Assembly (NCBI GenBank): GCA_015493475.1
Contig: WGDC01000026.1
Span: 19,116-83,115 of the forward strand
Direction: 5' to 3'
DNA length: 64,000 nt
DNA from: Deltaproteobacteria bacterium
GTDB lineage: Bacteria; Desulfobacterota; Dissulfuribacteria; Dissulfuribacterales; QOAL01
Below the pieces are notes generated by a model. That model did no database searches, was not told where the DNA came from, and saw only the letters and a program-made list of their open reading frames with translations. Shown in pieces: positions 1-35,896 of the stretch (within the stretch, counting starts at the first letter, position 1; every line of letters starts with the position of its first letter). A program made the translations under genes and the position numbers.

Positions 1-254
1 GCCGCATATTTTGTTGAAATTTTAGGGGCGAGGGACAGAACCGCCCTGTTTCCCCTCAAGTAGGGAAAACCGGCTATGGGGATAACCTCCTCACATCGAA
101 GCCCGTTCTTGCTCAGGAGTTTTTCCATCAAGAGCCATTCCCTTCCGCATTTTTCCCCCTTGGTGTGAGGGTAGTAAAAAAAGGCCTTATCTGAGGCAGC
201 TGCAAGGCTTGCAGCCATGATAATTGCAAGTAGTACGGGGACAATTTTCTTCAT
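1..254 (-). CDS. hypothetical exported protein (3' end cut by window edge)
   Basis: ATG at 254..252; absent from the ORF track because it is truncated. The translation MKKIVPVLLAIIMAASLAAASDKAFFYYPHTKGEKCGREW... has a typical signal peptide. It lies on the same strand as the NapA-like gene, 95 nt downstream. Confidence 0.4.
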   Translation of the reverse strand, partial: MKKIVPVLLAIIMAASLAAASDKAFFYYPHTKGEKCGREWLLMEKLLSKNGLRCEEVIPIAGFPYLRGNRAVLSLAPKISTKYA

Positions 255-272
255 ATCTTTCTGTCTGAAGAG

Positions 273-292
273 GCCGGCGCAAGGGCCGGCCA
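273..292 (-). terminator. GC hairpin downstream of NapA-like gene (weak terminator or stabiliser candidate)
   Basis: ggccggc-N6-gccggcc forms a perfect 7-bp GC stem. On the minus strand it is followed only by a poor U tract. Confidence 0.3.
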
Positions 293-349: not shown

Positions 350-2761
350 TCAGGCCTTCATGTGAACGAGGAAGGGCTTCAGGGGCCTTGGCCCGGAAAC
401 CCTCTTTATTCGGCAGGCGCATATCTTAAATTCTGGCTCCTTTGAGCCAGGATCAAATGCATCCTTGGTGACCCTGTTTATCATCCTGTTTTCATCCTCA
501 TCATGCCAGTAAACAAAAACCATGCCCTCGCATGGCCCGACATAAACCTTTGCAGGCAGTATATTCCTGCCTCGCCTTGAAACGACTTCTATCATGTCTC
601 CCGGTTTTATCCCCAGCCTTTCCGCATCCTTTGGGTTGACCTCCACATAAGCGTATGGATTCGCCCGCATAAGCTCTATGATCCTTCCGGTCATGCTACT
701 CGTATGCCAGTGGTCGATAATCCTGCCTGTTGACAGGTAAAACGGATACTTGCTGTCTGGCATCTCTGCGGGACCCTTTTGTGGCCTGAGCCATATCCAA
801 AGTTTCCTGTCAGGATGAGCGGGGCCGTAGAACTGGTATGGGAGGTCGTTCTTTGCATACTTGTCGGCAAGTGGATCGAGGCCTCTTACAAACTTTATGT
901 CTGTTCCACCCTTTAGTGCCCATTGCTTGGTTGGGGCAGGCCACTGAACGCCGTCAGGAAGTTTCTCCAGGACTTCATAGGTTGCCCCGCTCAGGTCGTT
1001 GTCTCTGCCCTTGGTAAGTTTTTGCGTGTACTCCTCCCATATGGCCTTGGGTAACTCATAATCCGGTTCCTTGCCCATGAAGGGTTCCACGCACTTTTTG
1101 ATTACCGGATCATTAAGTTCCTTAGAAAGCCGAAGTGCCCATTCTCTGACCATCCATACCTCGGGTTTTGCCTCGCCCGGGGCATTAACGGCCTTTACCG
1201 TGAGCTGGGAACGCCTCTCGGTACACCCGTAGACGCCGGTTTTCTCAAAAATGAATGCCGTAGGAAGAATCAGGTTCGCAAGCTCCGTGGTCTTTGTCGG
1301 AAAGATATCCGAAACGACAATAAAAACATCCTCCCTTCTCATACCTTTCCGGTACTTGTCACAGTTTGGAAGAGACTGTGCAGGGCTTGTACAGTTTATC
1401 CAGATGGCCTTGATTTTTCCCTCGTTGACTGCCTCGAACATGGCCATTGTATGGTAGCCGGGCTTTGGAGGGATACGGCCTTCCGGTATTCCCCAGAGGC
1501 GTTCCACCTGATGCCTCAGTTTGTTTTTTTTGACTAGCCTGTGAGCCGGCAGTATATGGCAAAGACCGCCTCCCTCCCTGACGCCCCCGCAGGCATTGGG
1601 TTGGCCTGTAAGAGAGAAGCTGTCCGCCCCGGGTCTACAGAGTTGTCCGGTGAGTATATGCAGGTTGTGGATAAGGTTGTTCGCCCAGACACCCCTTGAT
1701 CTTTGGTTTATGCCCATGGTCCAGAGACTCATGGTCCCCTCAGACTTGGCAAACCACAGGGCCGCCTTTCTGATTTTGTCAGCTGTTATGTTTCCACCGC
1801 AGATTCGCGCCACCTTTTCCGGCGTGTAATCCTTGATAAAGGCCATGTATTTTTGAAGACTGACCTTTTTCTTTTTCTTGCCCATGCGAAAGTCCGCATA
1901 GTTTTTCAGAAAATCCTCATTATAAAGCTTGTCTTCAAGAATTACGTAGGCCATAGCGTTGAGAAGGGCGAGGTCTGTCCCCGGGGCGAACTGCAGGTGC
2001 AGGTCTGCAATCCTTGATGTGGGGGAAACCCTTGGGTCTGCATTTATGACCTTGACCGTATCCTTGTTGTCCATCTTTCTGCGCATTATGCGCCTGAAGA
2101 GTACGGGATGCGCTTCCGCCGTGTTACTGCCTATGATGAAAAAGCACGATGCCCGTTCAAAGTTGCTATAGCTACCAATAGGCTCATCCGCGCCGAAAGA
2201 GGTAACGTAGCCGCCGACTGCGCTTGCCATGCAAAGGCGGGGGTTTCCTTCAACATTGTTGGTCTTCAGGCCTCCCCGCATTACCTTCTGGAAGATATAT
2301 GTCTCCTCGGTAAATGCCTGGCCGGAGCCGTAATAGGCTACAGAGTTGTTCCCATATTTCTTGACGGTCTTGGCAAATTCCTTGGATGCGATATCAAGGG
2401 CCCTGTCCCAGGAAATTTCCCTGAACGGCTGGTCTTTCCTGGCCCTGTAAAGGGGTTTCTTCAATCTTTCCGGGTGATTGTTTCCCATGAGCTTGTAGAA
2501 AAGCATGCCCTTCATGCACAAGTAACCCATGTTTGTGCGCGACTGCGGGATTCCCCTGAGTGCCACGGCCTTGCCGTTTTTTACCTCGAGTTCAAGTCTG
2601 CAACCAGACCCGCAAAGGCGGCAGGTGCCCTTGTGCCAGCTATCAGCATCTGATGCGTGGGCGGAATAATCCTCGTTGGAGATGGGAAGGCTTAATCCAG
2701 CGTATGATGCGGCTGTGAGGGCTGCCGTTCTTTTGATGAATTCTCTTCTTGAAAGCCCCAT
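350..2761 (-). CDS. napA: periplasmic nitrate reductase catalytic subunit-like molybdopterin oxidoreductase (NapA-like), Tat-exported
   Basis: Twin-arginine signal MGLSRREFIKRTAALTAAS. N-terminal 4Fe-4S motif CRLCGSGC...C. NapA-type Mo-ligand context NPRLCMASAVGGY. NapA-like GRIIDHWHTSSMTGR. 803 aa, with a cytochrome rather than an FeS partner gene immediately upstream. Confidence 0.8.
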   Translation of the reverse strand: MGLSRREFIKRTAALTAASYAGLSLPISNEDYSAHASDADSWHKGTCRLCGSGCRLELEVKNGKAVALRGIPQSRTNMGYLCMKGMLFYKLMGNNHPERLKKPLYRARKDQPFREISWDRALDIASKEFAKTVKKYGNNSVAYYGSGQAFTEETYIFQKVMRGGLKTNNVEGNPRLCMASAVGGYVTSFGADEPIGSYSNFERASCFFIIGSNTAEAHPVLFRRIMRRKMDNKDTVKVINADPRVSPTSRIADLHLQFAPGTDLALLNAMAYVILEDKLYNEDFLKNYADFRMGKKKKKVSLQKYMAFIKDYTPEKVARICGGNITADKIRKAALWFAKSEGTMSLWTMGINQRSRGVWANNLIHNLHILTGQLCRPGADSFSLTGQPNACGGVREGGGLCHILPAHRLVKKNKLRHQVERLWGIPEGRIPPKPGYHTMAMFEAVNEGKIKAIWINCTSPAQSLPNCDKYRKGMRREDVFIVVSDIFPTKTTELANLILPTAFIFEKTGVYGCTERRSQLTVKAVNAPGEAKPEVWMVREWALRLSKELNDPVIKKCVEPFMGKEPDYELPKAIWEEYTQKLTKGRDNDLSGATYEVLEKLPDGVQWPAPTKQWALKGGTDIKFVRGLDPLADKYAKNDLPYQFYGPAHPDRKLWIWLRPQKGPAEMPDSKYPFYLSTGRIIDHWHTSSMTGRIIELMRANPYAYVEVNPKDAERLGIKPGDMIEVVSRRGRNILPAKVYVGPCEGMVFVYWHDEDENRMINRVTKDAFDPGSKEPEFKICACRIKRVSGPRPLKPFLVHMKA

Positions 2762-2776
2762 ATTGTTTTCCTCCTT

Positions 2777-3157
2777 TTATTTATGGATGAAAAAGTAATG
2801 GGCTGGATGACAATCCCAGCATTTTTTGTTCTTGGGACGCTTCATGTATTGAGCGTTGTGGCAGGAGGCACAGGTGGCTTCATCCGGACTGGCCTTGATG
2901 TCTTCGTAGGTGCCGTGGCACTGGAAACATTTCACGTTGTCTATGCCGTGTACGGAGTTGTACCACTCCTTGTACACAGTGGGCGTTGCGTCTTTATGGC
3001 ATTGAGAGCATGGAGTAAGTTTTTCCTGGGCGGACAGTTCCGGATGCGCGCTGGCGGGCTTGGAAGAAGGGGTATTCTTTGAAGCCCATGCTGGGCAGGC
3101 GACTACAAGGGCCACGGCTAATACGAGGATACACGATCTTAAGAATTGTCCTTTCAC
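2777..3157 (-). CDS. small tetrahaem cytochrome c (NapM-like)
   Basis: Four CxxCH motifs (CSQCH, CFQCH, CASCH, CWDCH) in about 100 mature residues. The signal peptide ends in VVAC (lipobox-like) and AWA|S. GTG start with AGGAGG 6 nt upstream. The stop lies 16 nt before the NapA-like start. Confidence 0.8.
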   Translation of the reverse strand: MKGQFLRSCILVLAVALVVACPAWASKNTPSSKPASAHPELSAQEKLTPCSQCHKDATPTVYKEWYNSVHGIDNVKCFQCHGTYEDIKASPDEATCASCHNAQYMKRPKNKKCWDCHPAHYFFIHK

Positions 3158-3170
3158 GTTTCACCTCCTT

Positions 3171-3204
3171 GGAAAAAAGAAAGGGCCAGACAGGCCGGCC
3201 CTTT
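3171..3204 (-). terminator. intrinsic terminator-like hairpin after the porin gene, directly abutting the napM-like RBS
   Basis: The minus-strand RNA reads AAAGGGCC-GGCCUGUCU-GGCCCUUU (perfect 8-bp stem) followed by CUUUUUUCC. An A-run on the other side makes it potentially bidirectional. Confidence 0.6.
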
Positions 3205-3209
3205 TTCAG

Positions 3210-4649
3210 TTAAAATGTAAACCTGAACTCCGCATAGAAAAAGTCAAGGTCATCATCCTTGGTAAAGACCTGTTCTACCACGTCATCTCCCCAGACATGG
3301 CTGTAATAGAGATCAAGCCCCATACTTACGCCATAGGCCTTGTAAATGTCCTTGATAAAGAGGGACAGGTCCCACATGGTTCCAAGATCATCGTTGTCAA
3401 AACCACCGGCAGGCCTCAGGGCCTTGTATCCGAAGATATCCGCCCTCGTGGCACCGGAGCCCTGGTACCAGGCATCCTCCTTTTCCGTAAGCCAGAGCCT
3501 CGTAACGTCGCTGCGGACCAGTACGTTTGGAAGTGGCTTTGCCATGACCTGTCCAAAACAGTATGTGGTATTCATGAGGTTAAACCACGGGGTCATGGCA
3601 TAGATACGCAGGGTGGGCATCATCATGAAGAAGGTATCCCGGTCATGATCATTCGGATCGTCATCACCGGAACCCTGGAAGTAACCGCCTCGCACCCATG
3701 GCTGCCAGGTGATGTCCTCGAACTTGTAACCGCCTTCAAGGGCTACCGCGTAGCCGCTTTGGTCATCGGAACCCCATACACCTGTCTGGTAGTCTCCCCA
3801 GACCAAGAAATCAAAGCTGCCAGGACCGAGCTTGGGAGTGACGTAAATGATGTGGCCCCCAAAGTTGTGTATCTCCGGATCTTGGTGAAGGATATGCCTA
3901 TCATCGTTGTAATAGTAGTAGAATAACTGGGCGTCTAGCCTCGGTATGACGGAGTCCTTGAGGGTAAAGACAGCGGTGAGTATGTCTATGTCATGGATTT
4001 TCTTCCCGTGTACCTCGTTTTCCATGTAATCAAGGTAGAATCCTCCCTGGGTTGGCTCGAAGCCCGCCACGGTAAAGTTGTAGTCCTTATCATTCCACGC
4101 CACTTGGAAACCGTCGAATGAACGGCCCACCCGTGACCATTCAAATCCGCCTATGAGTCTTTGGGACACACGTAGCTTCCTGAGCCAGGCGATACGCTTG
4201 TTCTTGGGTTTTGTGCCGTATTCAAGGCCACTGTTGTATTTGAAACGGCCGATGGTAGCGCTGAGGTTTTTACAGCCCGGCATGCGGCCGCGTAGCCACA
4301 ACTGGTCGATGCCAACCTTTCCAACGTCTCTGGCCCCGTTGTTCTGACCATAATAGAGGGCGCCAGTCCCGTAAGAGGCATGTCTCGGAAGGCCGAAAAA
4401 CTGGGTCCAGTTTATCTCGCTGTAGGCGTCTATGTTCTGGGAATCGAAACCAAAACCAAGGCGCATCTTGCTCGAAACAAAGTCGTATTGGTCATCTCTG
4501 GTGCTCTGTTTTTCAAAGGTGGACCAGTTTTCATATCTTACCTCTTCCTTGAACTTAATATACGCGTTCTTGTTGATTTTGTAGGCATAGGCGTTTGCTG
4601 CTGAAAGAAACAACAAGGCCAAAAACACTGCAAAAATTGGTCTTTTCAT
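3210..4649 (-). CDS. outer-membrane beta-barrel porin-like protein
   Basis: Signal peptide MKRPIFAVFLALLFLSAANAYA|YK. Alternating amphipathic strand pattern rich in G/Y/D/W. C-terminal aromatic signature ...YAEFRFTF. Strong RBS AAGGAGGG. Confidence 0.75.
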   Translation of the reverse strand: MKRPIFAVFLALLFLSAANAYAYKINKNAYIKFKEEVRYENWSTFEKQSTRDDQYDFVSSKMRLGFGFDSQNIDAYSEINWTQFFGLPRHASYGTGALYYGQNNGARDVGKVGIDQLWLRGRMPGCKNLSATIGRFKYNSGLEYGTKPKNKRIAWLRKLRVSQRLIGGFEWSRVGRSFDGFQVAWNDKDYNFTVAGFEPTQGGFYLDYMENEVHGKKIHDIDILTAVFTLKDSVIPRLDAQLFYYYYNDDRHILHQDPEIHNFGGHIIYVTPKLGPGSFDFLVWGDYQTGVWGSDDQSGYAVALEGGYKFEDITWQPWVRGGYFQGSGDDDPNDHDRDTFFMMMPTLRIYAMTPWFNLMNTTYCFGQVMAKPLPNVLVRSDVTRLWLTEKEDAWYQGSGATRADIFGYKALRPAGGFDNDDLGTMWDLSLFIKDIYKAYGVSMGLDLYYSHVWGDDVVEQVFTKDDDLDFFYAEFRFTF

Positions 4650-4680
4650 TTCCTAACCCTCCTTTTTGTCTGAAAGAAAC

Positions 4681-4711
4681 GAGGCCGTGGCTCCCTATAG
4701 ACCACAGCCTC
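4681..4711 (-). terminator. intercistronic hairpin between the hao-like and porin genes (attenuator or stabiliser candidate)
   Basis: The minus-strand RNA reads GAGGCUGUGG-N11-CCACGGCCUC (10 bp including one G.U) followed by GUUUCUUUC. Confidence 0.4.
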
Positions 4712-4746
4712 CTTCCCATGTTTATGCTCCTTCGAGAGCTTGCCCA

Positions 4747-6111
4747 TTAAAGAGGACCCGTACTCATGACGGTGCTTGGCTCTTCAATCTTGTTATATTT
4801 CATCCTGTAGTTGTAAATCTGCTGCAGGTCCTTATACATCTGGAATATCTGGAAAAAGCCGTGCCAGTGTGCATAGTCTGGTCCGTTCATCGCCGCGCCC
4901 TGGCGCGCACGTCTTCCGGCATGATGCCAAAGGTAGTACATGATTTCCTGGAAGCCGTCTGCCCACGGATCCTTCCCGAGGAGTCCCTTGGCCGCTAGCT
5001 CCTTTTTCATCTTAACAGCGCCATCCCAGTAAAAGTTGTAAAGGGCGACCGCGTCGTCAAGTGTGTGTATTTCCTTCTGCATTTGAGTGGGGCCATGGCA
5101 GTTTACACAAACCTTTCTCATGAGCTTTGCACCTTTTTCTCCGTCACCTCTTTCACCAGAACGGATTACGCTCTTTGGATGCACGAGGTCCCACTTCAGT
5201 CTCTCGTTTATGTTGTGAGTGGTTGTCAAGTCTCCTATCCCGCTCATGTGGCAGGTAGCACATGTGGGAGCAGTGTAGTCACCGGGCTGCCATGCGTCAG
5301 GAGCGCTGTCCCATTCCCAGGTATCTCCTTGGGTTTGGAATATCTGTCCGTGTTTGCTCTCCATGTAAATCTCTATGTCCGGATGATCTGGGCCAAGGTG
5401 GCAGCTTGCGCAGGCCTCCGGTTTTCTGGCCTCCTCAACAGAGAATTGATGCCTCGTGTGGCAGACAGTGCAGGTACCTATGGAGCCGTCTGGGTACCTG
5501 GTTCCAATGCCACCCGGCCATGTGTTCTTTATGGGCTTATGATCCGGGCCGAGCTCCACCTTGCCTCCGTGACACATCTGGCATCCTGATTCACGTGAGG
5601 CCATGTTGCTCGAGTTGGACCTGCTGTTTCCTATGAACCCACCACCTTCGAGGTGGTAAATCAGGTTCAGGGTCTTTTTCTTATCTACGACGGGAAAACT
5701 TGAAAGCTTTGCGTGACCGCTTTTCAGGAACTGCTCAACCTCCTGGGGGTGACAACGTGAACAGGTGCGGGACGACACCATGGGTGATATGAAGATATTG
5801 GAACCCTTTATCCCTGAACACTGGCTCGCCATTGGTGAACTTTTTTCCACCACGTGACAGTCAAAACAGGACACAGATGCGTGGGCCATCTTGCCACGTT
5901 TCCATGACTCAACGATGCCCGGGGTTTTCTTGGAATGGCAATCAACGCATTTTGCCGCCGCCGGTGACATGCCCCTTTTAATAACAAGCTCCTTGTGAAG
6001 CTTGGGGGTAGCGTTGCCACTGCCTTGGTCAGCAAATGCCACACTGCATACCAGGCAAAGGAACACGCTGGCCAATATCAGTGTGCCCGTTTTACAAGCT
6101 AATCGTTTCAT
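4747..6111 (-). CDS. octahaem c-type cytochrome, hydroxylamine oxidoreductase (HAO) family, epsilon-Hao-like
   Basis: Eight CxxCH motifs (CVDCH, CFDCH, CSRCH, CQMCH, CTVCH, CASCH, CATCH, CVNCH). HAO-family blocks [31 protein letters not shown] and [24 protein letters not shown]. Signal peptide present. Confidence 0.85.
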
Positions 6112-6151
6112 GTTAACCCTCCTTTGTTATTTTTATTTTCAAAAATCCAAA

Positions 6152-6703
6152 TTACTTGGCCTTCTTCGTAAGTTCCCTGAACTCCGCTACGAGATCCCCA
6201 TGTCCGACATCATGGTGGCAGTCCAGGCATGTCCTCTTGGTCTGCCCCACGAGGTAGGCCTTGTGGGCCGTAAATGCCTTTACGGGAATCCCGGGGGCAA
6301 CGAGTTTTTTATGACACTCCTTGCATCCGGAATTGTATGCTGCATGAACGTACGGCCCCCTATTTTTCCATAAGGTTAGCCAATCGGTTTTTTTCCCCAT
6401 CCAGTGAGCCTTCATGTCGTGAAGGCCGGCTATGGTTTTTGTTTTCAGGTAATCGGCAAGGCTATCGTGGGGCAGGTGGCAGTCAACACACCTGGCACGA
6501 ATCACGCCCTTTGCGTCTGTTCCGTGCTTGCCCGCTGCCCAGGTTCTGTAAAAGGGATGCATCTCGTGGCAAGAATTGCAGAATTGAACCGTGCTCGTAG
6601 ACTGGACCTGCCTGGCCATGAAAAAGGCTATTACAAGGGCTACAAGGAAGGCAATTACGCATGCGGCCAGTACAGCCCCCCCCTGATCTGTGATAATCCT
6701 CAT
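6152..6703 (-). CDS. NapC/NirT/NrfH-family membrane-anchored tetrahaem cytochrome c (quinol dehydrogenase)
   Basis: N-terminal TM helix AVLAACVIAFLVALVIAFFMA. Four haem motifs (CNSCH, CVDCH, CKECH, CLDCH). I place the start at the ATG at 6703, which has AGGAGG 6 nt upstream. The track start at 6811 is a TTG inside the AT-rich promoter region. Confidence 0.85.
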   Translation of the reverse strand: MRIITDQGGAVLAACVIAFLVALVIAFFMARQVQSTSTVQFCNSCHEMHPFYRTWAAGKHGTDAKGVIRARCVDCHLPHDSLADYLKTKTIAGLHDMKAHWMGKKTDWLTLWKNRGPYVHAAYNSGCKECHKKLVAPGIPVKAFTAHKAYLVGQTKRTCLDCHHDVGHGDLVAEFRELTKKAK

Positions 6704-6772
6704 GGAACCCCTCCTGCTTTGAGTTTGTTGAAGGATAATATAATTTTCATGCTTAATTTTAGCGAAATTTTC

Positions 6773-6851
6773 TGTTACTTTGTTGTTAAATATGTTACTA
6801 AATTGTAACAAATTTCATTAGTGCTGATTTCGTTGGAAATATTCTGTAACA
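6773..6851. promoter_or_regulatory. cluster of four TGTTAC/GTAACA hexamers, including an 18-bp palindrome, in the divergent promoter region
   Basis: TGTTAC at 6773 and 6793; GTAACA at 6805 and 6846. 6793..6810 reads TGTTAC-TAAATT-GTAACA. The outer copies share TCTGTTAC. Confidence 0.5.
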
Positions 6852-7239: not shown

Positions 7240-8792
7240 CTTTCATGTTTTTAAGCCTCGGACACAAGATCCTTTTCTGGATAATCCTAATATTCGGCCT
7301 TTTTGGTTCGGTTTTTCTTGTTTGGCAGGGGGCGCAGTACAGAAAGGCGGGTATATCCCAACTCCTGCAACAATCAAGGGGAATCTATCACTATGTGGTG
7401 CTTTCCCGGCAGTTGATTTCGAGCTGGCACGGAATCTACATTAAGAAGGGCGGCAAGTATATAGGGATGACCCCTTCGGCCTTCACTAAGGAGCTTGCAT
7501 CCTTTTCCGGACAGAAGGCACCCTTCAGCCTGAAGGTGGCAGTGCTCAACACCAAGAATCCTGATCATATCCCGGATGAATTTGAAAAGGAGGCAATCCT
7601 TTCAATGGCAAGGGGCAAGAAAAAGGAAGCCTGGATACTGGAGTATGACAAGGATGCCTACCTGTTCCGCTATGCAGGCGCCTTGATTTTCGAGAACGAA
7701 TGCAAGAGCTGCCATAGTCGCAGTCCCAAGGTAAGGACACTCGGTTGTATATCAATAGGGGTAAACGCTAACAACTTTTTTGACGTGCTCGAAAGCGATC
7801 TAGTCCACTACGTTATATACATGTTAGTAGGCATCCTCGTAATCCTGACACTGCTATGGTTCATGCTTAGAAGCTATGTGCTTAATCCCCTCAGTCAGTT
7901 GAGCGGTGCGGCGGAGGAGGTCAGGGGAGGAAAATTCAATGTCAGGGTTCATCTCGATCAGAGTATTGAATGGCTCAGTGTGGGGGAAAATTTCAACAAC
8001 ATGGTTGAAACCCTATCCAAGAGGCAGACAGCCCTCAGGGAAGAGGCGGATAGTGCAATCGAAAAGTTGAGGATGGCCTACGAAGAGCTGAAAAAGATCG
8101 AGAGATACAAATCAGGTTTTTTTACCAATATCACCCACGACTTGAAGACTCCAATTACTGCTATAAAGGGTGCAATAGCCATTTTGTCAAGAAAATGTTC
8201 TGATGAACACCATCCCTACCTTGAAATTCTCCAGAGAAACGTGGAAAAGCTTTCTTCCATGGTGCAGGATATCCTTGACTGTTCACGCATAGAAAGTGGA
8301 GAGCTTACCCTCCAAAAGGAGGAGCTCGATCTTGCTGAGGTATTGGAAGATGCGATACTAATGGCCATGCCTTTGGCCTGGAAAAAGAAGATCAAGCTCG
8401 ATTATCAGGTGCCTGAAGAGCCTTGTTTAGCCATGCTGGACAAGAAAAGAATGGAACAGGTAATTATAAATTTGCTTTCGAACGCCACCAAGTTTTCACC
8501 TGATGGTGAAGTCGTGGAAATTAGTCTTTTACGGGAAGGGAATTACTGGAAGGTTATGATAAAGGACAAGGGCCCAGGCATACCCAAGGAAGATCGTGAC
8601 AGGATATTCAACAAGTTTTTCCAGCGCTCAGATACCATGAATGACACTGGCATGGGGCTCGGCCTTGCTATTGCAAAGGGAATTATAGAGGCCCACTGCG
8701 GCAGGATAGGCGTTTGTGACAGGGGACTGGGCAGGCGTGGAAGCTGCTTCTATTTTTTGATTCCATGCCTTGGGATACGCAAGAGGGACTGA
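7236..8792 (+). CDS. sensor histidine kinase with N-terminal c-type-haem sensor domain (DUF3365/Tll0287-like), HAMP, HisKA, HATPase
   Basis: One CxxCH (ENECKSCHSRSP) closes a periplasmic domain flanked by two TM helices. H-box FFTNITHDLKTPITAIKG. G2 box GMGLGLAIAKG. The start is uncertain (TTG 7236 or ATG 7245). Confidence 0.8.
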   Translation: MTFMFLSLGHKILFWIILIFGLFGSVFLVWQGAQYRKAGISQLLQQSRGIYHYVVLSRQLISSWHGIYIKKGGKYIGMTPSAFTKELASFSGQKAPFSLKVAVLNTKNPDHIPDEFEKEAILSMARGKKKEAWILEYDKDAYLFRYAGALIFENECKSCHSRSPKVRTLGCISIGVNANNFFDVLESDLVHYVIYMLVGILVILTLLWFMLRSYVLNPLSQLSGAAEEVRGGKFNVRVHLDQSIEWLSVGENFNNMVETLSKRQTALREEADSAIEKLRMAYEELKKIERYKSGFFTNITHDLKTPITAIKGAIAILSRKCSDEHHPYLEILQRNVEKLSSMVQDILDCSRIESGELTLQKEELDLAEVLEDAILMAMPLAWKKKIKLDYQVPEEPCLAMLDKKRMEQVIINLLSNATKFSPDGEVVEISLLREGNYWKVMIKDKGPGIPKEDRDRIFNKFFQRSDTMNDTGMGLGLAIAKGIIEAHCGRIGVCDRGLGRRGSCFYFLIPCLGIRKRD

Positions 8793-8796
8793 GACT

Positions 8797-9492
8797 ATGG
8801 TTGCGGCCAAGATACTGGTCATCGAGGATGACCAAGATATAAGAACGGTGCTGATGGACCAGTTGCGACTTGATGGCTTTGAAACCGTGGGCGCGTCAAC
8901 TGGCAGGGAGGTACTTGAAAATTTCAGTTCCATTTCCCCGGATCTCGTAGTGCTTGATCTTAAACTGCCTGACATAGACGGTCTGGTGATATGCCAGAAG
9001 CTGAGAAGGCTGTCGAACATTCCCATAATAATTGTAAGCGCCCGTGATTCATTGCCGGACAAGATAAGGGGCCTTGAAGTTGGCGCAGACGACTATGTTA
9101 CGAAACCCTTTGAGTACTTGGAGCTTGAAGCCAGGATACGTGCGTGCTTGAGGCGCCGTCAAGCCACTGCTGCCATGATAGAGCCGTTGGACCTCGGTAA
9201 GCTGAAGATTTACCGCCAAAAGAGGATAATAGAGGTAAATGGAAAACGCGTGAAGCTTACCAAAAAGGAGTTTGAGCTCCTGACCCTCTTTCTAGAAAAC
9301 AAGGGGAAGGTCCTGAGCAGGGAATTTCTGAGCAGCCATCTATGGAATAAAAAGGAAGTGTACCCCTGGTCTCGCGCACTTGATGTGCACATAAGGAGGC
9401 TCAGGAAGAAGATAGAACCGGACCCGGCAAATCCCAAGTATATCCTGACTCATGCAGGCGTAGGCTACAGGTTTTCAACGCACGATGGGTGA
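8797..9492 (+). CDS. OmpR/PhoB-family response regulator
   Basis: Receiver (ILVIEDD ... DLVVLDLKLPDIDG ... KP) plus a winged-helix output (LTKKEFELLTLFLENKGKVLSRE ... GVGYRF). The ATG at 8797 follows the kinase stop by 5 nt. Confidence 0.9.
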   Translation: MVAAKILVIEDDQDIRTVLMDQLRLDGFETVGASTGREVLENFSSISPDLVVLDLKLPDIDGLVICQKLRRLSNIPIIIVSARDSLPDKIRGLEVGADDYVTKPFEYLELEARIRACLRRRQATAAMIEPLDLGKLKIYRQKRIIEVNGKRVKLTKKEFELLTLFLENKGKVLSREFLSSHLWNKKEVYPWSRALDVHIRRLRKKIEPDPANPKYILTHAGVGYRFSTHDG

Positions 9493-9635: not shown

Positions 9636-12600
9636 TTAAACCAGGGTTTCCTGCTGCTCGTACTTTGGCCTGAGTGCTGGATAGCCGAGGACGCGCGTTA
9701 TGTTTTCAGCAAGCTCCTCGTCAAGGCGCGCATTGAACTCGTCGGGCAGGGAAAGGTGAACAATGCCCTTATTGTTTATCCGTATACTTAGAGTTACAGG
9801 CAGTTTTCCCCTGGCGCGTTTCAATACGTCTTTGAGCTGTTTCACCATTTCCGTTCCAACCTGGTCTTCCTTGATATCTATTATGACGCCGCAGGTCTTT
9901 CTCGCGCATACCTCTTCGAGGAGCTCCACCTTTTCGCTTATAATCTTATAGGTTGCCGATTCACTGTTTTCTCCCTCCTTTTTAAGGAGACCTTCAACAA
10001 AGATTGGTTTCTCCGAGGCTATAACCTCACTGAATCTCGAATACGCCTCTGGAAAACATATCACCTCCACCGAGCCTGTCAGGTCTTCAAGGATGAAAAA
10101 GGCCATCTTGGTCCCCTTTTTCGTAAGTTTATCCTTTTTAGACCTGACAACGCCGGCGAGGCAAAGCCTGGTTCCTTCTGGAATTCCAGACAGGTTACCT
10201 GCGGTAACGCTGGTCAGAATGGAAATATCCTGTCTGAAGGCGTCAAGGGGATGGCCGCTTACATAGAATCCAAGAGCCTCCTTTTCCATGGACAGCCTGT
10301 CCATCTCCTCCCACTCGTCCACGTCCGGGATATTGAAGGAGGAAGCGCCCTCGACAAGTGTGGAGACGTTGTCGAAGAGAGATTTTTGACCAAGGCTTTT
10401 TTCTTTCTGCTTTTTGTGGCCGAACTCTATTGCGGCATCTATGCTTTTAAAAAGCTGGGACCTCTTGAGGCCGAAACAATCAAGGGCTCCTGATTTTACC
10501 AGGCCCTCGATTACCCGTTTGTTGACCTTTTTAAGATCAACCCTTGAGACGAAATCAGTGAAGTCTTCAAATAGGCCATGTTCCTCCCTTTCCTTTATTA
10601 TTACTCGGATGGCACTTGCTCCAACATTTTTGACAGCCGCAAGGCCAAAGCGTATCTTGTCGTCCTCTATGGTGAAGTCCTCGTCGCTTCTGTTAATGTC
10701 GGGAGGGAGGACCTCGATTCCGCTAGAACGACACTCCCCGAGGAACTTTACTACCCCGTCAGTGTTCCCAAGCTCGTTTGAGAGGAGGGAAGTCATGAAT
10801 GGTATGCGGTAATGTGCCTTGAGCCAGGCCGTCTGGTAAGAGATGAGGGCATAGGCGGCGGAATGGCTCTTGTTGAAGCCGTAGCCGGCAAACTTGGCCA
10901 TGAGGTCGAAGATGATTTCGGCCTTTTCCCTGTCAATGCCTCTTTCCAAGGCGCCTTTCATGAACCTCTCTTTCTGAGCCTCCATGACATCGGCTATCTT
11001 CTTGCCCATTGCGCGCCTGAGGAGGTCACCCTCGCCAAGGCTGTAACCGGCGAGCTCCTGGGCGATCTTCATGACCTGTTCTTGGTACACAATGACCCCG
11101 TAGGTCTCTTTGAGAATGGGTTCAAGTTCGGGAAGAAGGTACTTTACCTCCACCTGTCCATGTTTCCTCTTTACAAAGTCAGAAACCATTCCGCTCTCGA
11201 GGGGGCCTGGCCTGTAAAGGGCAACAAGGGCAATGAGATCCGTAAAGGTTGTGGGCTTAAGCTGCCTGATAAGGTTTTTCATCCCTGAGCTTTCAAGCTG
11301 GAAAACGCCCGTTGTGTCACCGTCCTGAAGGAGTTTGAAGGTCTTATCGTCGTCTATGGAAATGGAGGAAAGATCTATCTCCATACCGTGGTGCTTCTTT
11401 ATAAGCTTTATTGCAGTATCGATAACCGTAAGAGTCTTCAGTCCAAGAAAGTCGAACTTGATTAGTCCAACCTTCTCCACGTCCTTCATGTCAAACTGTG
11501 TTACTGTCTCTCCCTCTTGACCCTTGGTAAGGGGCAGGTATTCTACCATGGGTTTGTCCGAGATAACCACCCCAGCAGCATGGGTGGAGGAATGGCGCGG
11601 GAGCCCCTCAAGAGCCCTGGCTATGGTGAGGAGCCGTTCAACCTGGCCATCATTCGCAGAAAGCTCCTTGAGCTTGGGCTCAAGCTTCAGGGCCTCCTCA
11701 AGGCTTATGTTGAGTTTTTCGGGAACGAGCTTTGCTATCCTGTCCACCTCATGATAGGACATGCCAAGCCCCCTTCCAACGTCCCTTATTACAGCCCTTG
11801 CCTTCATCTGGCCAAAGGTGATTATCTGCGCAACAAAGTCCTCGCCTCCGTATTTTTCAGTGACGTACCTTATTACCTCGTCCCTTTTAGCCATGCAAAA
11901 GTCAACGTCTATATCTGGAAGGGAGACCCTTTCCACGTTGAGAAAACGCTCAAAGAAAAGGCCGTAGCGTACCGGATCTATCTCCGTTATGCCCATGGAG
12001 TAAGCAACCAGGGAGCCTGCCGCAGACCCCCTGCCTGGCCCAACCGGGATTTCGTGGTTCTTTGCCCAGTTTATGAAGTCCGCAACTATGAGAAAATAGG
12101 AAGCAAACCCCTTTTCCTTTATGATTGCGAGTTCCTCCTCGAGCCTGTCCTGGTATAACCTGTATTCATCTTCAGAAAGGCCTAGTTGCGTTTTTCGCTC
12201 CTCAAATCCCTTTCTCGCCTGCCTGTCAAATACCTCCTCGTAGGTTTTCCCCTTATCAATCCTGAAAAAGGGAAAGTGATGCCTACCTGTCTCTATTTCC
12301 ACGTCACACATGGAGACTATTTCTCGGGTGTTGGCGAGGGCCTCCGGGCACCAGGCGAAACGGCGGGCCATCTCCTCCATGGAGGCAAAGTAGAGGCTGT
12401 CTGTTGAGAACCTCATTCTGTTCTTTTCGTTTACCGTTTTGCCGGTCTGAATACAGAGAAGGACGTCATGGGCGTCCGCATTTTCCCTGTCGAGGTAGTG
12501 GCAGTCATTTGTGGCTACCACCGGAATCCCGAGCTTTCTTGACAGGTGAACCATGGCCTCGTTGACCTGTTTTTGCTCAGGAATCCCATTTTCCTGGAGT

Positions 12601-13127
12601 TCGAGGTAAAATCTGTCTTTGAAGATGCTAGCGTATGTCTCTGCTAAGCTGCAAGCCGCCTTTTCATCACCTCTCAAAAAGGCATGGCTCACTTCGCCAT
12701 GCAGACAGGCTGAAAGCGCAATGAGCCCTCCGTTAAGCTCCTGGAGAATTTCCTTGTCAACCCGGGGCTTGTAATAGAATCCCTCGAAATTAGCCACAGT
12801 GACGAGCTTCAAGAGATTTTTATAACCATGCCCATTCATGGCGAGTAGCACAAGGTGAAAGGCTGCCTGTGACTGGCTCCTGGCGTTTCTGTCCTTCCTG
12901 CTGCCAGGGGCAACGTATAACTCACAACCGATTATGGGTTTTATTCCAGCCCTTATCGCCCCCTCGTAGAACTTGAGGACACCGTACATGTTGCCATGGT
13001 CGGTAATGGCTATGGAGTCGTAACCAAACTCCTTAGCCCTCGGAAACAGGTCCTTGAGCCGGATAGCCCCGTCAAGGAGGCTATATTCGGTGTGAAGATG
13101 AAGATGGGTGAATCCTGGTGCGTCCAT
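9636..13127 (-). CDS. dnaE: DNA polymerase III alpha subunit
   Basis: 1163 aa. PHP motif FTHLHLHTEYSLLDG. Catalytic LPDIDVDF. HhH and OB-fold C-terminus. Confidence 0.95.
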   Translation of the reverse strand: MDAPGFTHLHLHTEYSLLDGAIRLKDLFPRAKEFGYDSIAITDHGNMYGVLKFYEGAIRAGIKPIIGCELYVAPGSRKDRNARSQSQAAFHLVLLAMNGHGYKNLLKLVTVANFEGFYYKPRVDKEILQELNGGLIALSACLHGEVSHAFLRGDEKAACSLAETYASIFKDRFYLELQENGIPEQKQVNEAMVHLSRKLGIPVVATNDCHYLDRENADAHDVLLCIQTGKTVNEKNRMRFSTDSLYFASMEEMARRFAWCPEALANTREIVSMCDVEIETGRHHFPFFRIDKGKTYEEVFDRQARKGFEERKTQLGLSEDEYRLYQDRLEEELAIIKEKGFASYFLIVADFINWAKNHEIPVGPGRGSAAGSLVAYSMGITEIDPVRYGLFFERFLNVERVSLPDIDVDFCMAKRDEVIRYVTEKYGGEDFVAQIITFGQMKARAVIRDVGRGLGMSYHEVDRIAKLVPEKLNISLEEALKLEPKLKELSANDGQVERLLTIARALEGLPRHSSTHAAGVVISDKPMVEYLPLTKGQEGETVTQFDMKDVEKVGLIKFDFLGLKTLTVIDTAIKLIKKHHGMEIDLSSISIDDDKTFKLLQDGDTTGVFQLESSGMKNLIRQLKPTTFTDLIALVALYRPGPLESGMVSDFVKRKHGQVEVKYLLPELEPILKETYGVIVYQEQVMKIAQELAGYSLGEGDLLRRAMGKKIADVMEAQKERFMKGALERGIDREKAEIIFDLMAKFAGYGFNKSHSAAYALISYQTAWLKAHYRIPFMTSLLSNELGNTDGVVKFLGECRSSGIEVLPPDINRSDEDFTIEDDKIRFGLAAVKNVGASAIRVIIKEREEHGLFEDFTDFVSRVDLKKVNKRVIEGLVKSGALDCFGLKRSQLFKSIDAAIEFGHKKQKEKSLGQKSLFDNVSTLVEGASSFNIPDVDEWEEMDRLSMEKEALGFYVSGHPLDAFRQDISILTSVTAGNLSGIPEGTRLCLAGVVRSKKDKLTKKGTKMAFFILEDLTGSVEVICFPEAYSRFSEVIASEKPIFVEGLLKKEGENSESATYKIISEKVELLEEVCARKTCGVIIDIKEDQVGTEMVKQLKDVLKRARGKLPVTLSIRINNKGIVHLSLPDEFNARLDEELAENITRVLGYPALRPKYEQQETLV

Positions 13128-14802: not shown

Positions 14803-16779
14803 ATGGAAAATAAAAAGTGTATAAAGTTGAGAAGGAAAATCGATTGTGTTAATGTGAATTTCATGGATGATGATTGCAAACGATGCGGTTCGGCAGCTTC
14901 CCCTAATGAAAAGGGTGTAAGCCGCCGAAAACCGTCAGATTGTAATAAACTCGATATCGACCGTGTTTCTATGGATAGTGGCTGGACGGATATCGAGAAA
15001 AATAAGACGGCCCCAAGGGATGAGGACGAGTCCGAAAGGCCTTTTCCCTCACGGAAAACCCTCGAGAAGGAAATTAGCGAATACCTTGCCAAGAAGTATG
15101 GTGGCAGGGTCAAGGTTATATCTCAGATGGTTTTCCCCGGCGAGGCAAAAGTAGAAGAAACAGATCATACAGAGGAACAAGCCAAGAAAAAGGGCGGAGT
15201 AGTAAATTTCAGTATCAAACCGAGGGAGCTTGAGGAATATCTGAACGAATACGTGGTAAAGCAAGACGAGGCCAAGGCGGTTCTCGCCACCAAGATATGT
15301 ACGCATTTTAACAAGATCGCCTATCTCGAAAGACGCGGGAAAAGCCGTCACCCGGTTGGCAACATCAAAAATAACATAATACTTATCGGACCTACCGGGG
15401 TGGGGAAGACATACCTCATAAAACTCATAGCAGCTAAGCTAGGAGTTCCTTTTGTGAAGGGAGACGCCACAAAGTTCAGTGAGACGGGTTACGTGGGCGG
15501 GGACGTGGAGGACCTCGTGAGAGACCTCGTCAAGGAGGCGGACGGGGACATTGGAAAGGCCCGTTACGGAATAATATATATTGACGAGATAGACAAGATA
15601 GCCGCCACCGACGGGCTACGTGGGCCGGATGTGTCGAGATCCGGTGTCCAAAGGGCACTTTTGAAACCCCTTGAAGAAACAGAGGTGGATCTTAAGACGC
15701 CACATGACCCCATTTCCCAACTCGAGGCCATAGAGCACTTTAGAAAGACCGGTAAGAGGATGAAAAAAACCATAAATACCAAAAACGTCCTATTCATAGT
15801 GAGCGGGGCCTTTTCCGGTCTTTCAGATATTATAAAAAAGAGGCTTTCTGCGCAGGGCATAGGTTTTGGAGCCGAGCTCGACTTGCGCGAGGAACAGGAG
15901 TGGCTTAAAAAGGTCAAGCCACAGGACCTAGTGGAATTTGGTTTTGAAAACGAATTTATAGGCAGGCTTCCCGTCATCGCCGTTCTTGAGGAGTTAACAG
16001 AGGACGACCTTTTTGAGATACTCAAGAATCCAAAAAGTCCCGTGATCGTGAGCAAGAAACAGGATTTCAGGGCCTATGGCATCGATCTCAAGTTTGAAAA
16101 AGAGTCCTTCAGGCTCCTTGCTTCCCATGCCTACCATGAAAAGACAGGGGCCAGGGCCCTCGTAAGTGTCATAGAGCGGGCGCTTCTTCCTTTTGAAAAG
16201 GCCCTTCCTTCAACGGACATCGATTTTTTGGTTGTTACCCGTGATCTTGTAGAAGATCCTGAAAGTGCCCTGGAAGAGCTTTTGAGGGAACCGCACAGTC
16301 CTGAACGCATCAGCCGGTACGAGGCCATGGTTCATCATGAAAAGGAGCAGATAATCAACGGCCTCGCTTCCAGGCGTCTTTCTTCATGGCGGGAGCAGGG
16401 AGTCACCCTGAATGAGAACCGCAAGGAGCTTATCGCCCACCTCTGCCTGAAGGATGATTTGAGCGTGGATGAAGCGGCGGCTAACGTACTGTTCTGGATA
16501 CAGCAAATCAAGAGCTACGAGGCATCATTTTTCAACAGGTGTGAAATTGACATCACATTTGACGATGAGGCCGTGGACAAGATTCTCGATGCATGCCGTT
16601 TTGATCCCGCGAGCCTATATAGTCAGTGTGAACGCCTTACAAGCATATTGGAATACGGCCTTACACTCATCAGGGAGAGGACAGGACAGGCCGAATTCAA
16701 CGTTCCATCCGACGCGGTGGAAAATCCCGAGCTTTTCATAAACCGTCTAATCCGTATCTGTTACGAATCTAACAGCTAG
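14803..16779 (+). CDS. ClpX-like AAA+ unfoldase paralogue with atypical N-terminus and about 170-aa C-terminal extension
   Basis: Walker A GPTGVGKT. Walker B IIYIDEIDK. Pore loop ETGYVGGDVE. IGF-type loop AQGIGFGAE. Sensor-2 TGARAL. No C4 zinc-binding domain (only CKRCG). 658 aa, compared with about 420 aa for ClpX. Confidence 0.8.
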   Translation: MENKKCIKLRRKIDCVNVNFMDDDCKRCGSAASPNEKGVSRRKPSDCNKLDIDRVSMDSGWTDIEKNKTAPRDEDESERPFPSRKTLEKEISEYLAKKYGGRVKVISQMVFPGEAKVEETDHTEEQAKKKGGVVNFSIKPRELEEYLNEYVVKQDEAKAVLATKICTHFNKIAYLERRGKSRHPVGNIKNNIILIGPTGVGKTYLIKLIAAKLGVPFVKGDATKFSETGYVGGDVEDLVRDLVKEADGDIGKARYGIIYIDEIDKIAATDGLRGPDVSRSGVQRALLKPLEETEVDLKTPHDPISQLEAIEHFRKTGKRMKKTINTKNVLFIVSGAFSGLSDIIKKRLSAQGIGFGAELDLREEQEWLKKVKPQDLVEFGFENEFIGRLPVIAVLEELTEDDLFEILKNPKSPVIVSKKQDFRAYGIDLKFEKESFRLLASHAYHEKTGARALVSVIERALLPFEKALPSTDIDFLVVTRDLVEDPESALEELLREPHSPERISRYEAMVHHEKEQIINGLASRRLSSWREQGVTLNENRKELIAHLCLKDDLSVDEAAANVLFWIQQIKSYEASFFNRCEIDITFDDEAVDKILDACRFDPASLYSQCERLTSILEYGLTLIRERTGQAEFNVPSDAVENPELFINRLIRICYESNS

Positions 16780-28408: not shown

Positions 28409-28411
28409 AAT

Positions 28412-35100: not shown

Positions 35101-35267
35101 CACCTGTAGAACCTGGCAACACCCCAGGTGTTCCAGATGTCCGTAAGGGCCACTGCCTCCTGCCCCAGGCCCCGTGCCCTCTTTACCAGGGCCCCTGGAG
35201 AAAAGGTGCCATAGAGAAAGGAGTAGGCGCTAGTGACATCGAGATTTACAAAGTTCTGTTTTGACAC
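32168..35267 (-). pseudogene. dnaE2: error-prone DNA polymerase DnaE2, split by a frameshift into 886-aa (32607..35267) and 152-aa (32168..32626) ORFs
   Basis: DnaE2-type degenerate PHP N-terminus (FVNLDVTSAYSFLYG). Catalytic LPDIDIDFDSERRDEV. The OB-fold (VVVTGLVIFFHTPPTRSGKRIIFATLEDETGLFDSVI) is encoded in a different frame that overlaps by 20 nt. Confidence 0.75.
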
Positions 35268-35271
35268 GTGC

Positions 35272-35889: not shown

Positions 35890-35896
35890 GTACTCT

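Follow-up and report, generated by a model that had tools for sequence, protein, structure and literature searches.

An NrfH-type/octahaem HAO-family gene pair joined to a periplasmic nitrate reductase unit in an uncultured Dissulfuribacterales bacterium

Layout of the locus and its continuation past the window edge

In this study, we analysed a periplasmic redox locus at one end of a 64,000-nucleotide (nt) stretch from a Deltaproteobacteria bacterium of the order Dissulfuribacterales (contig WGDC01000026.1, positions 19,116 to 83,115), which is referred to below, at its full length, as the window. Five co-oriented genes on the minus strand (350-6703) encode, in the order of transcription, an NrfH-like quinol dehydrogenase, an octahaem cytochrome of the HAO family that we call Hao8, an AlgE-like outer-membrane barrel, a NapM-like tetrahaem cytochrome, and the molybdoenzyme NapA. 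On the plus strand, diverging from the nrfH-like gene, lie genes for a cupin, a haem-c sensor kinase, and an OmpR-type regulator. We consider it reasonably probable that the window holds the 5′ two-thirds of a nine-gene respiratory cluster, in which an nrfH-like/hao8 module and a nap module are joined under divergent two-component control. The features of the locus are as follows.

1-254, minus strand: first 84 codons of orfX, which starts at 254 and runs off position 1
272-291, minus strand: stem-loop of high GC content (GGCCGGC...GCCGGCC) with only a weak T-run, in the gap from the napA stop to the orfX start codon
350-2761, minus strand: NapA, 803 amino acids (aa), with a twin-arginine translocation (Tat) signal (SRREFIK) and Fe4S4, molybdopterin, and dinucleotide-binding domains
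2777-3157, minus strand: 126-aa NapM-like cytochrome c, tetrahaem (four CxxCH motifs), bearing a signal peptide
3170-3204, minus strand: intercistronic GC-rich hairpin and T-run, in the space that separates the barrel stop codon from the napM ribosome-binding site
3210-4649, minus strand: AlgE-like outer-membrane barrel, 479 aa, PF13372 (Alginate_exp)
4747-6111, minus strand: Hao8, octahaem HAO-family cytochrome, 454 aa, PF13447, with eight CxxCH motifs and a Sec signal peptide
6152-6703, minus strand: NrfH/NapC-family tetrahaem quinol dehydrogenase, 183 aa, PF03264, with four CxxCH motifs
6773-6810, minus strand: candidate operator of four tandem (G/T)T(A/T)ACA hexamers, ~70-110 nt upstream of the nrfH-like start codon
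6865-7239, plus strand: small cupin, PF07883, whose stop codon overlaps the kinase start codon
7236-8792, plus strand: sensor histidine kinase, PF11845 (E 9e-11) with CKSCH, followed by HAMP, HisKA, and HATPase domains
8770-9492, plus strand: OmpR/PhoB-family response regulator (Response_reg and Trans_reg_C)

The five minus-strand genes are separated by gaps of 40, 97, 52, and 15 nt, and each is preceded by an AGGAGG-type ribosome-binding site. An initial annotation, made from the sequence alone, had described these genes, and all were recovered with the sizes and CxxCH counts that it gave. Its octahaem protein carries the three HAO blocks that it quoted in addition to the PF13447 domain, its outer-membrane barrel matches PF13372, and its small mature tetrahaem protein occupies the NapM position. 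Its Tat-exported NapA-type enzyme has the twin-arginine signal and the three quoted motifs. The nrfH-like open reading frame (ORF) was listed from a TTG at 6811, and the 183-aa membrane-anchored protein of the initial annotation is obtained from the ATG at 6703, which follows a strong Shine-Dalgarno sequence (AGCAGGAGGGG).

A scan of species-representative genomes with the octahaem protein gave 22 loci, mostly from hydrothermal metagenome-assembled genomes (MAGs) and labelled Deltaproteobacteria, Thermodesulfobacteriota, or Thermodesulfatator. The gene order of the window, with hao8 beside nap, is conserved in 12 MAG loci, 11 from the scan and one more distant locus, L026. The napA stop codon lies only 349 nt from the start of the window, and orfX coding sequence already occupies that stretch. 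In L003, whose NapA is 91% identical to that of the window, orfX encodes 220 aa (15828-16490) and is followed by genes for an 85-aa NapD (PF03927, E 3.7e-18, exceeding the cut-off), a NapG-like 224-aa poly-ferredoxin with a Tat signal (best model NapG, E 5e-38), and a NapH-like 267-aa membrane ferredoxin (best models NapH/MauN, E 4e-33). By tblastn, orfX-napD-napG-napH comes straight after napA in all 10 of the scan loci that reach past napA (L003, L004, L005, L007, L008, L009, L010, L019, L021, and L022). The same four genes follow napA in L026, whose flanking genes are different, which brings the total to 11 of 11. A CxxCxxCC (PF03692) protein is encoded after napH in L003, L004, L005, and L022.

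The orfX product is, at full length, a conserved signal-peptide protein of ~220 aa, placed between napA and napD, that had no match in Pfam or NCBIfam. Its fragment in the window is 47-65% identical to the gene following napA in 10 relatives (65% to the N-terminus of the L003 protein), and its insertion between napA and napD is confined to the window clade. Because napD-napG-napH follow orfX in 11 of 11 relatives, the absence of NapD and NapGH that had been noted is most simply an artefact of the window edge. The other half of that statement holds, as neither NapB nor NrfA is found at the locus as far as it is visible. In the remainder of the window (9.6-64 kb), the Pfam-scanned large ORFs include no nrfA, nirS, nirK, nor, napB, napF, hcp, or further nap gene. 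The complete unit would comprise nine genes, namely, nrfH-like, hao, barrel, napM, napA, orfX, napD, napG, and napH.

Predicted functions of the encoded proteins

Among the NCBIfam models, NapA is the best-scoring family for the molybdoenzyme (666 bits with NF010055 and 627 bits with TIGR01706, in a match broken into 2-3 stretches), ahead of Fdh-alpha (486), NasC (376), and NasA (314), with arsenite oxidase (Aio, 152), DmsA (148), PhsA (133), and ArrA (69) scoring lower. Its best match among solved structures is the monomeric NapA of Desulfovibrio desulfuricans (DdNapA; PDB 2nap and 2jio), with 780 bits and an unbroken alignment of query residues 40-787 against chain residues 6-722; the heterodimeric NapAs scored 458-510 bits and FdhF 345. 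The N-terminal 4Fe-4S motif CRLCGSGC...C is present. The molybdenum (Mo) ligand Cys140 and Met141 (DdNapA numbering) fall inside a block that is identical in both proteins (NPRLCMASAVGGYVTSFG), the ligand Cys standing in CMASAV; NPRLCMASAVGGY is identical to DdNapA. Met308 (TMGINQR) and Arg354 (GGVREGG), in the same numbering, are conserved as well. It shares 75% identity with the NapA of Thermosulfurimonas sp. F29. The NapA of Thermosulfurimonas dismutans comes from a napMADGH cluster that has neither NapB nor NapC, and this organism respires nitrate to ammonium (PMC5276818, PMC9676032). Profile comparison with NapA, NasA, Fdh, and Arr thus places the Mo enzyme with NapA, as had been proposed, and its assignment to the monomeric, NapB-independent D. 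desulfuricans type is well supported by these similarities. The absence of NapB is normal for NapA of this type.

The napM-like gene lies immediately upstream of napA, with a gap of 15 nt. Its product gave generic cytochrome c3/c7 family matches in Pfam and is 47% identical to the protein encoded at the NapM position of the napMADGH cluster of strain F29. Four CxxCH motifs were found in 11 of the 12 orthologues retrieved, the twelfth, from L026, having come out truncated. Because the signal peptide ends with a lipobox-like motif (..A-C..) in nine of the 12, including the window copy (VVAC), the sequences suggest that NapM is possibly lipid-anchored and not soluble.

The barrel matches PF13372 with an E value of 1e-20, and its AlphaFold2 model has a mean predicted local distance difference test score (pLDDT) of 91, a predicted template modelling score (pTM) of 0.87, and about 18 strands. 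Foldseek returned AlgE (PDB 3rbh, 4afk), itself an 18-strand PF13372 barrel, as the best PDB match, with a template modelling (TM) score of 0.64-0.66, followed by the monomeric substrate-specific OccK/OprD channels. The AlgE pore is electropositive. The window barrel likewise has many conserved arginines: nine are invariant, and a tenth nearly so, in an alignment of 34 homologues reaching down to 33% identity. However, its sequence identity to AlgE is ~10%, and its homologues have nap genes, oxyanion reductases, or anion transporters as neighbours. A function as an alginate exporter is rejected despite the shared fold family, since the surroundings of the barrel contain nap and hao genes but no alginate biosynthesis or export genes.

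In the Thermosulfuriphilus and Thermosulfurimonas nap clusters, the gene immediately upstream of napM encodes a homologue that is 49-57% identical. In Thermosulfuriphilus sp., the barrel gene comes first, followed by napM-napA-napD-napG-napH, with the regulator and kinase convergent; in Thermosulfurimonas sp. F29, a module containing a different, 543-aa Hao (Hao543) lies upstream of the barrel. Because the barrel precedes napM with the same hairpin in both genera, it is part of the nap unit. More distant homologues adjoin a 1152-aa enzyme of the type-II dimethyl sulfoxide reductase family with NarJ-like and EB_dh subunits, an NMT1-type (nitrate/sulfonate/bicarbonate) ATP-binding cassette (ABC) transporter in Methylomonas, and a luciferase-like monooxygenase. 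From the model and these neighbourhoods, we infer that the barrel may be an anion-selective channel that supplies nitrate or nitrite. In papers on the published nap clusters, it is labelled a periplasmic protein of unknown function (PMC5276818, PMC9676032).

The NrfH-like protein has a single N-terminal hydrophobic transmembrane helix, four CxxCH motifs, and a PF03264 domain (E 2e-26). Its best NCBIfam model is NrfH, and the NapC/NirT model gave 49 bits against a cut-off of 311, so that by sequence it is a family member that is neither a canonical NrfH nor a canonical NapC. The first haem motif, CNSCHEM (within FCNSCHEMHPF), is of the CxxCHxM form, which we take to be the NrfH form on the basis of the Desulfovibrio vulgaris NrfH structure. 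The nrfH-like gene stands directly before hao8 in almost all of the loci recovered, whether nap is present or not, while the nap clusters of Thermosulfuriphilus and Thermosulfurimonas contain NapGH and no NrfH-like gene. Because of this constant pairing and of these nap clusters, we assign the NrfH-like protein to Hao8 and NapGH with NapM to NapA. The NrfH-like protein is probably the quinol dehydrogenase of Hao8, analogous to NrfH with NrfA, and probably not the donor of NapA that the initial annotation had envisaged, NapGH and NapM being available for that role. The arrangement resembles NrfHA, where a quinol dehydrogenase of the NrfH type, membrane-bound and with CxxCHxM as its first haem motif, is followed by a periplasmic multihaem reductase. 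However, the window has as its catalytic subunit an HAO-family protein that binds eight haems through CxxCH motifs and lacks CxxCK, whereas NrfA is a pentahaem protein.

Hao8 belongs to a very large family whose sequences are strongly conserved. More than 6000 of the candidates tested were homologues at E <= 1e-10, many of them 65-75% identical, and named sources include Maridesulfovibrio, Desulfovibrio, Desulfoluna, and Desulfuromusa. In each of the 121 family sequences examined, eight CxxCH motifs were counted and CxxCK was absent. Among solved proteins, the Ignicoccus cytochrome IhOCC is closest (4qo5, profile E 6e-54), followed by the Kuenenia enzyme KsHAOr (6h5l, 1e-30) and the Nitrosomonas HAO (NeHAO, 1e-28). 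Asp242 and His243 are invariant in the family and align with NeHAO Asp267 and His268 beside the catalytic haem. Two other assignments were tried and rejected. The octahaem nitrite reductases of cable bacteria and of Desulfurivibrio (the latter reported in PMC12142623) are of the ONR/TaNiR type and carry CxxCK, which Hao8 does not, and the multihaem selenoenzyme MccSep is pentahaem and unrelated. The last ~12 residues of the family (within 4747-4830, minus strand) are highly conserved among the 121 sequences. They lack a counterpart in IhOCC, where the aligned region stops sooner.

Whether Hao8 has the cross-linking tyrosine of NeHAO, Tyr467, was examined with C-terminal fragments of HAOs of the type found in ammonia-oxidizing bacteria, three of which cover this residue. 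Tyr467 was located in VGLAHVNPGGWTY467TEGWGP by counting from haem 8 (loop VNPGGWTYTEGWGP). In a global profile-profile alignment, FFQIF of the Hao8 family falls on FFQLF of NeHAO, and GGWTYTEG forms an insertion without a Hao8 counterpart. A local alignment of the C-terminal region weakly favours the same register (probability 6.6%), in which the Tyr467 position lies past the C-terminus of Hao8. The Hao8 C-terminus aligned against solved HAOs gave chance-level matches only and no NeHAO alignment. NeHAO Tyr334 aligns with Val310 of Hao8.

A hand alignment on the G-x-A-(H/M) motif compared the window protein (Tyr413, then AHWHG) with IhOCC (GTAMNGQDWTTF), KsHAOr (GTAHAQQDVSWWWG), and NeHAO (GLAHVNPGGWTYTEGWG). 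There, the Hao8 loop is three residues shorter, matching KsHAOr and IhOCC in length, and Tyr413 sits opposite a Trp of IhOCC and a Val of KsHAOr. No confident equivalent of Tyr467 appeared in any Hao8 alignment, in a region where similarity is too low for proof, and the comparison leans towards absence of the cross-linking Tyr. IhOCC reportedly lacks the cross-link. KsHAOr lacks it too, keeps the Asp-His pair, and reduces nitrite to nitric oxide (NO) (PMC8042395), and in vitro reduction of both nitrite and hydroxylamine has been described for HAOs without the Tyr (epsilon-Hao; Haase 2017, cited by PMC8042395).

Proposed regulation and relation to known nap clusters

The periplasmic part of the kinase is a Tll0287-like haem-c domain with a CKSCH motif; such a haem-c kinase is a candidate sensor of nitrate, nitrite, NO, or redox state. 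Orthologues of the kinase adjoin nap and/or hao in L024, L026, L028 (strain F29), and L033 (Thermosulfuriphilus). The regulator is 55% identical to the one beside the nap cluster of F29, and the kinase 41%. The cupin is conserved in the window clade and in L026.

The divergent intergenic region of 160 nt contains four (G/T)T(A/T)ACA hexamers spaced ~10-11 bp, or one helical turn, apart, and the block is nearly identical in relatives, including L026. A two-hexamer pattern gave three overlapping matches at 6773-6810, against 0.21 expected, and occurs nowhere else in the 64-kb window. A similar repeat pair lies ~100 nt upstream of the nrfH-like gene in the more distant loci L013, L015, L016, L017, and L024, where the orthologous kinase and regulator are present, and ~137 nt upstream of the barrel gene in Thermosulfuriphilus (L033/L034). 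It was not detected in L028, which has the kinase and regulator, and loci without this gene pair have the repeats upstream of neither the nrfH-like nor the barrel gene. With the relaxed pattern, ~0.4 matches per locus are expected by chance, and the few stray matches look like chance, so that the significance of the repeats lies in their position.

The hexamer block is a probable operator of the OmpR-type regulator. Because the repeats lie upstream of either unit and track the kinase and regulator, the same two-component system seems to act on nap in one lineage and on nrfH-hao8 in others. The order in L024 is napADGH, a convergent regulator and kinase, and nrfH-like-hao, with the two-component system between both units. 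Together with the shared regulon predicted from the repeats, this arrangement is the strongest genomic argument that Hao8 and Nap act in one pathway.

The initial annotation did not recognize the gene order as that of a described nap type. In fact, a barrel-napMADGH unit with a kinase and regulator is the cluster of Thermosulfurimonas and Thermosulfuriphilus (PMC5276818, PMC9676032). An 11-gene nap cluster has been described in T. dismutans and Dissulfuribacter thermophilus (PMC5276818) and also in T. marina and strain F29 (PMC9676032), and cultured T. dismutans, T. marina, and D. thermophilus perform the dissimilatory reduction of nitrate to ammonium (DNRA) without NrfA (PMC5276818, PMC9676032). 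The likeness extends over the barrel (49-57% identity), NapM (47%), NapA (75%), NapG (56%), NapH (57%), an orthologous NapD, the Tll0287-type kinase (41%), the OmpR-type regulator (55%), and the hairpin after the barrel. Both kinds of cluster have an HAO-family cytochrome beside nap and lack NapB, NrfA, and a NapC serving Nap. However, Hao8, with 454 aa, is only 30% identical to the 543-aa Thermosulfurimonas paralogue. The window Hao is fed by an NrfH-type cytochrome, whereas that of Thermosulfurimonas is fed by an NrfCD-like iron-sulfur/NrfD module and a c3-type cytochrome. In addition, the window has hao upstream of barrel-nap on the same strand, orfX between napA and napD, and a cupin before the kinase, the latter two being absent from the Thermosulfurimonas-type cluster, and its regulator genes are divergent and at the opposite end of the cluster.

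Similarity to other systems is more partial. The cluster of Deferribacter autotrophicus / D. desulfuricans, like that of the window, unites napMADGH with an octahaem Hao, and this nap-hao gene cluster was put forward in 2019 as a way for a vent thermophile to convert nitrate to ammonium without NrfA (PMC6896113). There, the Hao is encoded downstream of nap, with a small membrane protein, Hcp, and a decahaem cytochrome, and neither an NrfH-type partner nor an outer-membrane barrel appears in the published description of the cluster (PMC6896113). The napCMADGH operon of D. desulfuricans shares NapM, NapD, NapGH, and the lack of NapB (Marietou 2005, as cited in PMC5276818), but the NapC/NrfH-type gene of the window is separated from napM by hao and the barrel. 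Epsilon-Hao of Campylobacterota is another octahaem HAO-family protein; it is without the cross-linking Tyr, as Hao8 may be, and acts alongside Nap when there is no NrfA (PMC3701875; Haase 2017, cited by PMC8042395), and a NapC/NrfH-family tetrahaem partner is implied for it. Hao8, however, is from Thermodesulfobacteriota, and the HAOs of Campylobacterota form their own lineage, apart from those of Desulfobacterota (PMC9213671).

The flanks of the cluster differ between relatives. In L026 (1-4068), uvrC-mutL-miaA adjoin the regulator of the cluster; in the window, the same genes (42352-46960) are ~33 kb away, and dnaE adjoins the regulator. Because of this difference, the cluster and its regulators may behave as a movable module. 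Elsewhere in the window, lexA (35272-35925) is directly followed by genes for a second DnaE-type polymerase, 886 aa long with PHP, pol III alpha, and HHH domains, and by a separate ORF of 152 aa with an OB fold (32168-35925 in all, minus strand). This set resembles an SOS-inducible DnaE2-type cassette, the housekeeping dnaE being at 9636-13127. Further housekeeping features are TamA/TamB, RNase P RNA, and two tRNA genes (26648-31849, 52058-52438, 47544-47617, and 54177-54250, respectively), and the regions at 20-26.5 kb and 54.4-60.2 kb hold two efflux clusters of the ABC/MacB type that include OEP and HlyD components.

Proposed pathway, alternatives and significance

In the reading that we hold to be reasonably probable, the cluster would work as two joined modules. 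In the first, the membrane-anchored NrfH-type cytochrome would draw electrons from menaquinol and pass them to Hao8, which would reduce the nitrite made by Nap, most likely to ammonium and possibly through or to hydroxylamine or NO. In the second, the arginine-lined AlgE-like channel would let in nitrate or nitrite, NapGH would oxidise quinol, and NapM, probably lipid-anchored, would pass electrons to the monomeric NapA, which would turn nitrate into nitrite; NapD would act as the chaperone of NapA in Tat export. The haem-c kinase and the OmpR-type regulator may activate the cluster via the four tandem GTWACA repeats, which would replace a -35 element, and the hairpin after the barrel would be read through and set the ratio of upstream to downstream transcript. 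The route from nitrate through nitrite to ammonium with a Hao in place of NrfA, suggested by the initial annotation, is plausible because of the placement of NapA, the HAO family of the octahaem protein, the lack of a convincing Tyr, and the constant NrfH-type partner. The qualifier that it was self-contained without NapD and NapGH is, however, at odds with the relatives.

Several points weigh against this reading. The window DNA ends inside orfX, so that napDGH are placed there by analogy with relatives, and the carriers of the exact gene order are all uncultured MAGs, known from sequence alone. NapA scores below the NCBIfam equivalog cut-offs (666 against 904 bits for NF010055 and 627 against 930 for TIGR01706), although these models probably describe mainly NapAB-type enzymes, and the NrfH-like protein reaches 79 bits with the NrfH model, whose cut-off is 134. 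In Hao8, Tyr413 is Tyr in 119 of 121 family members and Phe in the other 2, and by a hand alignment of GAAMNGPDY with GLAHVNPGGWTY, it could correspond to Tyr467; AlphaFold2 gave a poor model of Hao8 (mean pLDDT 54), which precludes a structural check. The product of KsHAOr, a reductive HAO, is NO and not ammonium (PMC8042395). Finally, Speth et al. left the function of Desulfobacterota HAO clades unassigned and suggested sulfur reduction, the Auka vent sediments being low in nitrate (PMC9213671), and the names of related MAGs suggest a setting similar to Auka. That the window stems from one of the "Tharpellota" MAGs of that study seems unlikely, since recognisable terminal reductases were reported to be missing from them (PMC9213671). 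The linkage data nevertheless favour N-oxides as the substrate of Hao8, at least in this clade.

The alternative that survives best, unlikely as we judge it to be, is that the NrfH-like/Hao8 pair detoxifies nitrite, NO, or hydroxylamine, like NrfHA of D. vulgaris, and is not an energy-conserving DNRA enzyme. The pair would then lie beside nap to clear a toxic product of Nap, with NO or hydroxylamine maybe handled by Hcp and other proteins. Indeed, in Desulfoluna spongiiphila (L032, 5291-15040), nrfH-like-hao8 is flanked by rubrerythrin and cytochrome bd on one side and by a CRP/FNR-type regulator gene and two hcp genes on the other; such surroundings are typical of the response to nitrosative stress. 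The Hao8 family is also widespread in sulfate reducers that are not known as nitrate respirers, and in Maridesulfovibrio hydrothermalis the pair is a stand-alone two-gene unit. KsHAOr, with no Tyr and with the Asp-His pair kept, makes NO (PMC8042395), and a combination of Hao and Hcp via hydroxylamine has been proposed (PMC6896113). However, an NrfH-type quinol dehydrogenase partner is the design of the respiratory NrfHA, the pair of the window clade heads the nap cluster under the same probable operator, and the Pfam-scanned ORFs of the window include no hcp. Moreover, detoxification and respiration are not mutually exclusive for such chemistry.

We hold it to be very improbable that nrfH-like-hao-barrel, ending at a terminator, and napM-napA onwards are merely abutting and uncoupled transcription units. 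The hairpin at 3170-3204, with its 10-bp GC-rich stem and T-run exactly between the barrel and napM, does resemble an intrinsic terminator. It is found at the same position in 13 related loci, including those of Thermosulfurimonas and Thermosulfuriphilus, with different stem sequences; the stems show compensatory changes among genomes. However, the distance from the hairpin to the napM ribosome-binding site is ~10-20 nt, into which a promoter would not fit, the barrel precedes napM with the same hairpin in Thermosulfuriphilus and Thermosulfurimonas, and the order is kept in the 12 MAG loci. In Thermosulfuriphilus, napMADGH would be transcribed through the hairpin because the only operator found sits upstream of the barrel gene. 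For this reason, and because there is no room for a promoter, the hairpin is probably read through and would serve as an attenuator or a 3′-stabiliser, not as an operon boundary.

The weakest alternative, for which we see hardly any room, is that Hao8 acts on sulfite, polysulfide, thiosulfate, or tetrathionate and that its adjacency to nap reflects joint regulation of alternative acceptors: sulfur reduction has been hypothesised for HAO-family proteins of vent Desulfobacterota, nitrate and nitrite being scarce in Auka sediments (PMC9213671), and the fold superfamily, as presented in PMC13510729, includes the MccA sulfite reductase and the Otr tetrathionate reductase, with many promiscuous members, but two gene arrangements, that of the window and that of L024, tie hao8 to nap (the nap neighbour in Thermosulfurimonas is the different Hao paralogue, only 30% identical), operator-like repeats are common to hao8 and nap promoters, hao8 lies beside hcp in Desulfoluna, the Asp-His pair of N-oxide-converting HAOs is invariant, and the cluster contains no sulfur-metabolism gene.

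An NrfA-free route that combines Nap with an HAO-family protein is already known, having been proposed for Nautilia profundicola as the hydroxylamine:ubiquinone reductase module run in reverse (reverse-HURM; PMC3701875) and in 2017 for T. dismutans and D. thermophilus (PMC5276818), in addition to Deferribacter. What is new here is an NrfH-type/Hao pair joined upstream of a nap unit, and further the proposed role of the barrel as an arginine-rich AlgE-like channel of that unit, the conserved candidate operator, and the conserved intercistronic hairpin. The conserved "unknown periplasmic protein" of the published nap clusters thereby gains a candidate role as an anion channel, and the kinase and regulator with their repeats supply a candidate pair of regulator and operator by which nitrate/nitrite could be sensed with a haem-c domain.

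From a biological perspective, nap adjacency, shared repeats with a kinase and regulator, and hcp neighbours provide genomic evidence that one large Hao clade of Desulfobacterota works with periplasmic nitrate reductase. The family of Hao8 pairs spans Desulfobacterota and other sediment bacteria, and in the window clade and Thermodesulfobacteriales the pair may be wired to Nap via a shared haem-c sensor regulon. In anoxic mats and sediments, HAO-family genes without the cross-linking Tyr rank with the most abundant "nitrogen-cycle" genes (PMC8940962). We suggest, tentatively, that the NrfH-like/Hao8 pair could be a physiological nitrite/hydroxylamine reductase and the marker of a large overlooked DNRA/N-oxide guild, and that nap units of this kind could have a dedicated AlgE-like nitrate/nitrite channel. 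If this is true, surveys based on NrfA would underestimate the potential for DNRA and nitrite reduction in sulfidic and hydrothermal sediments.

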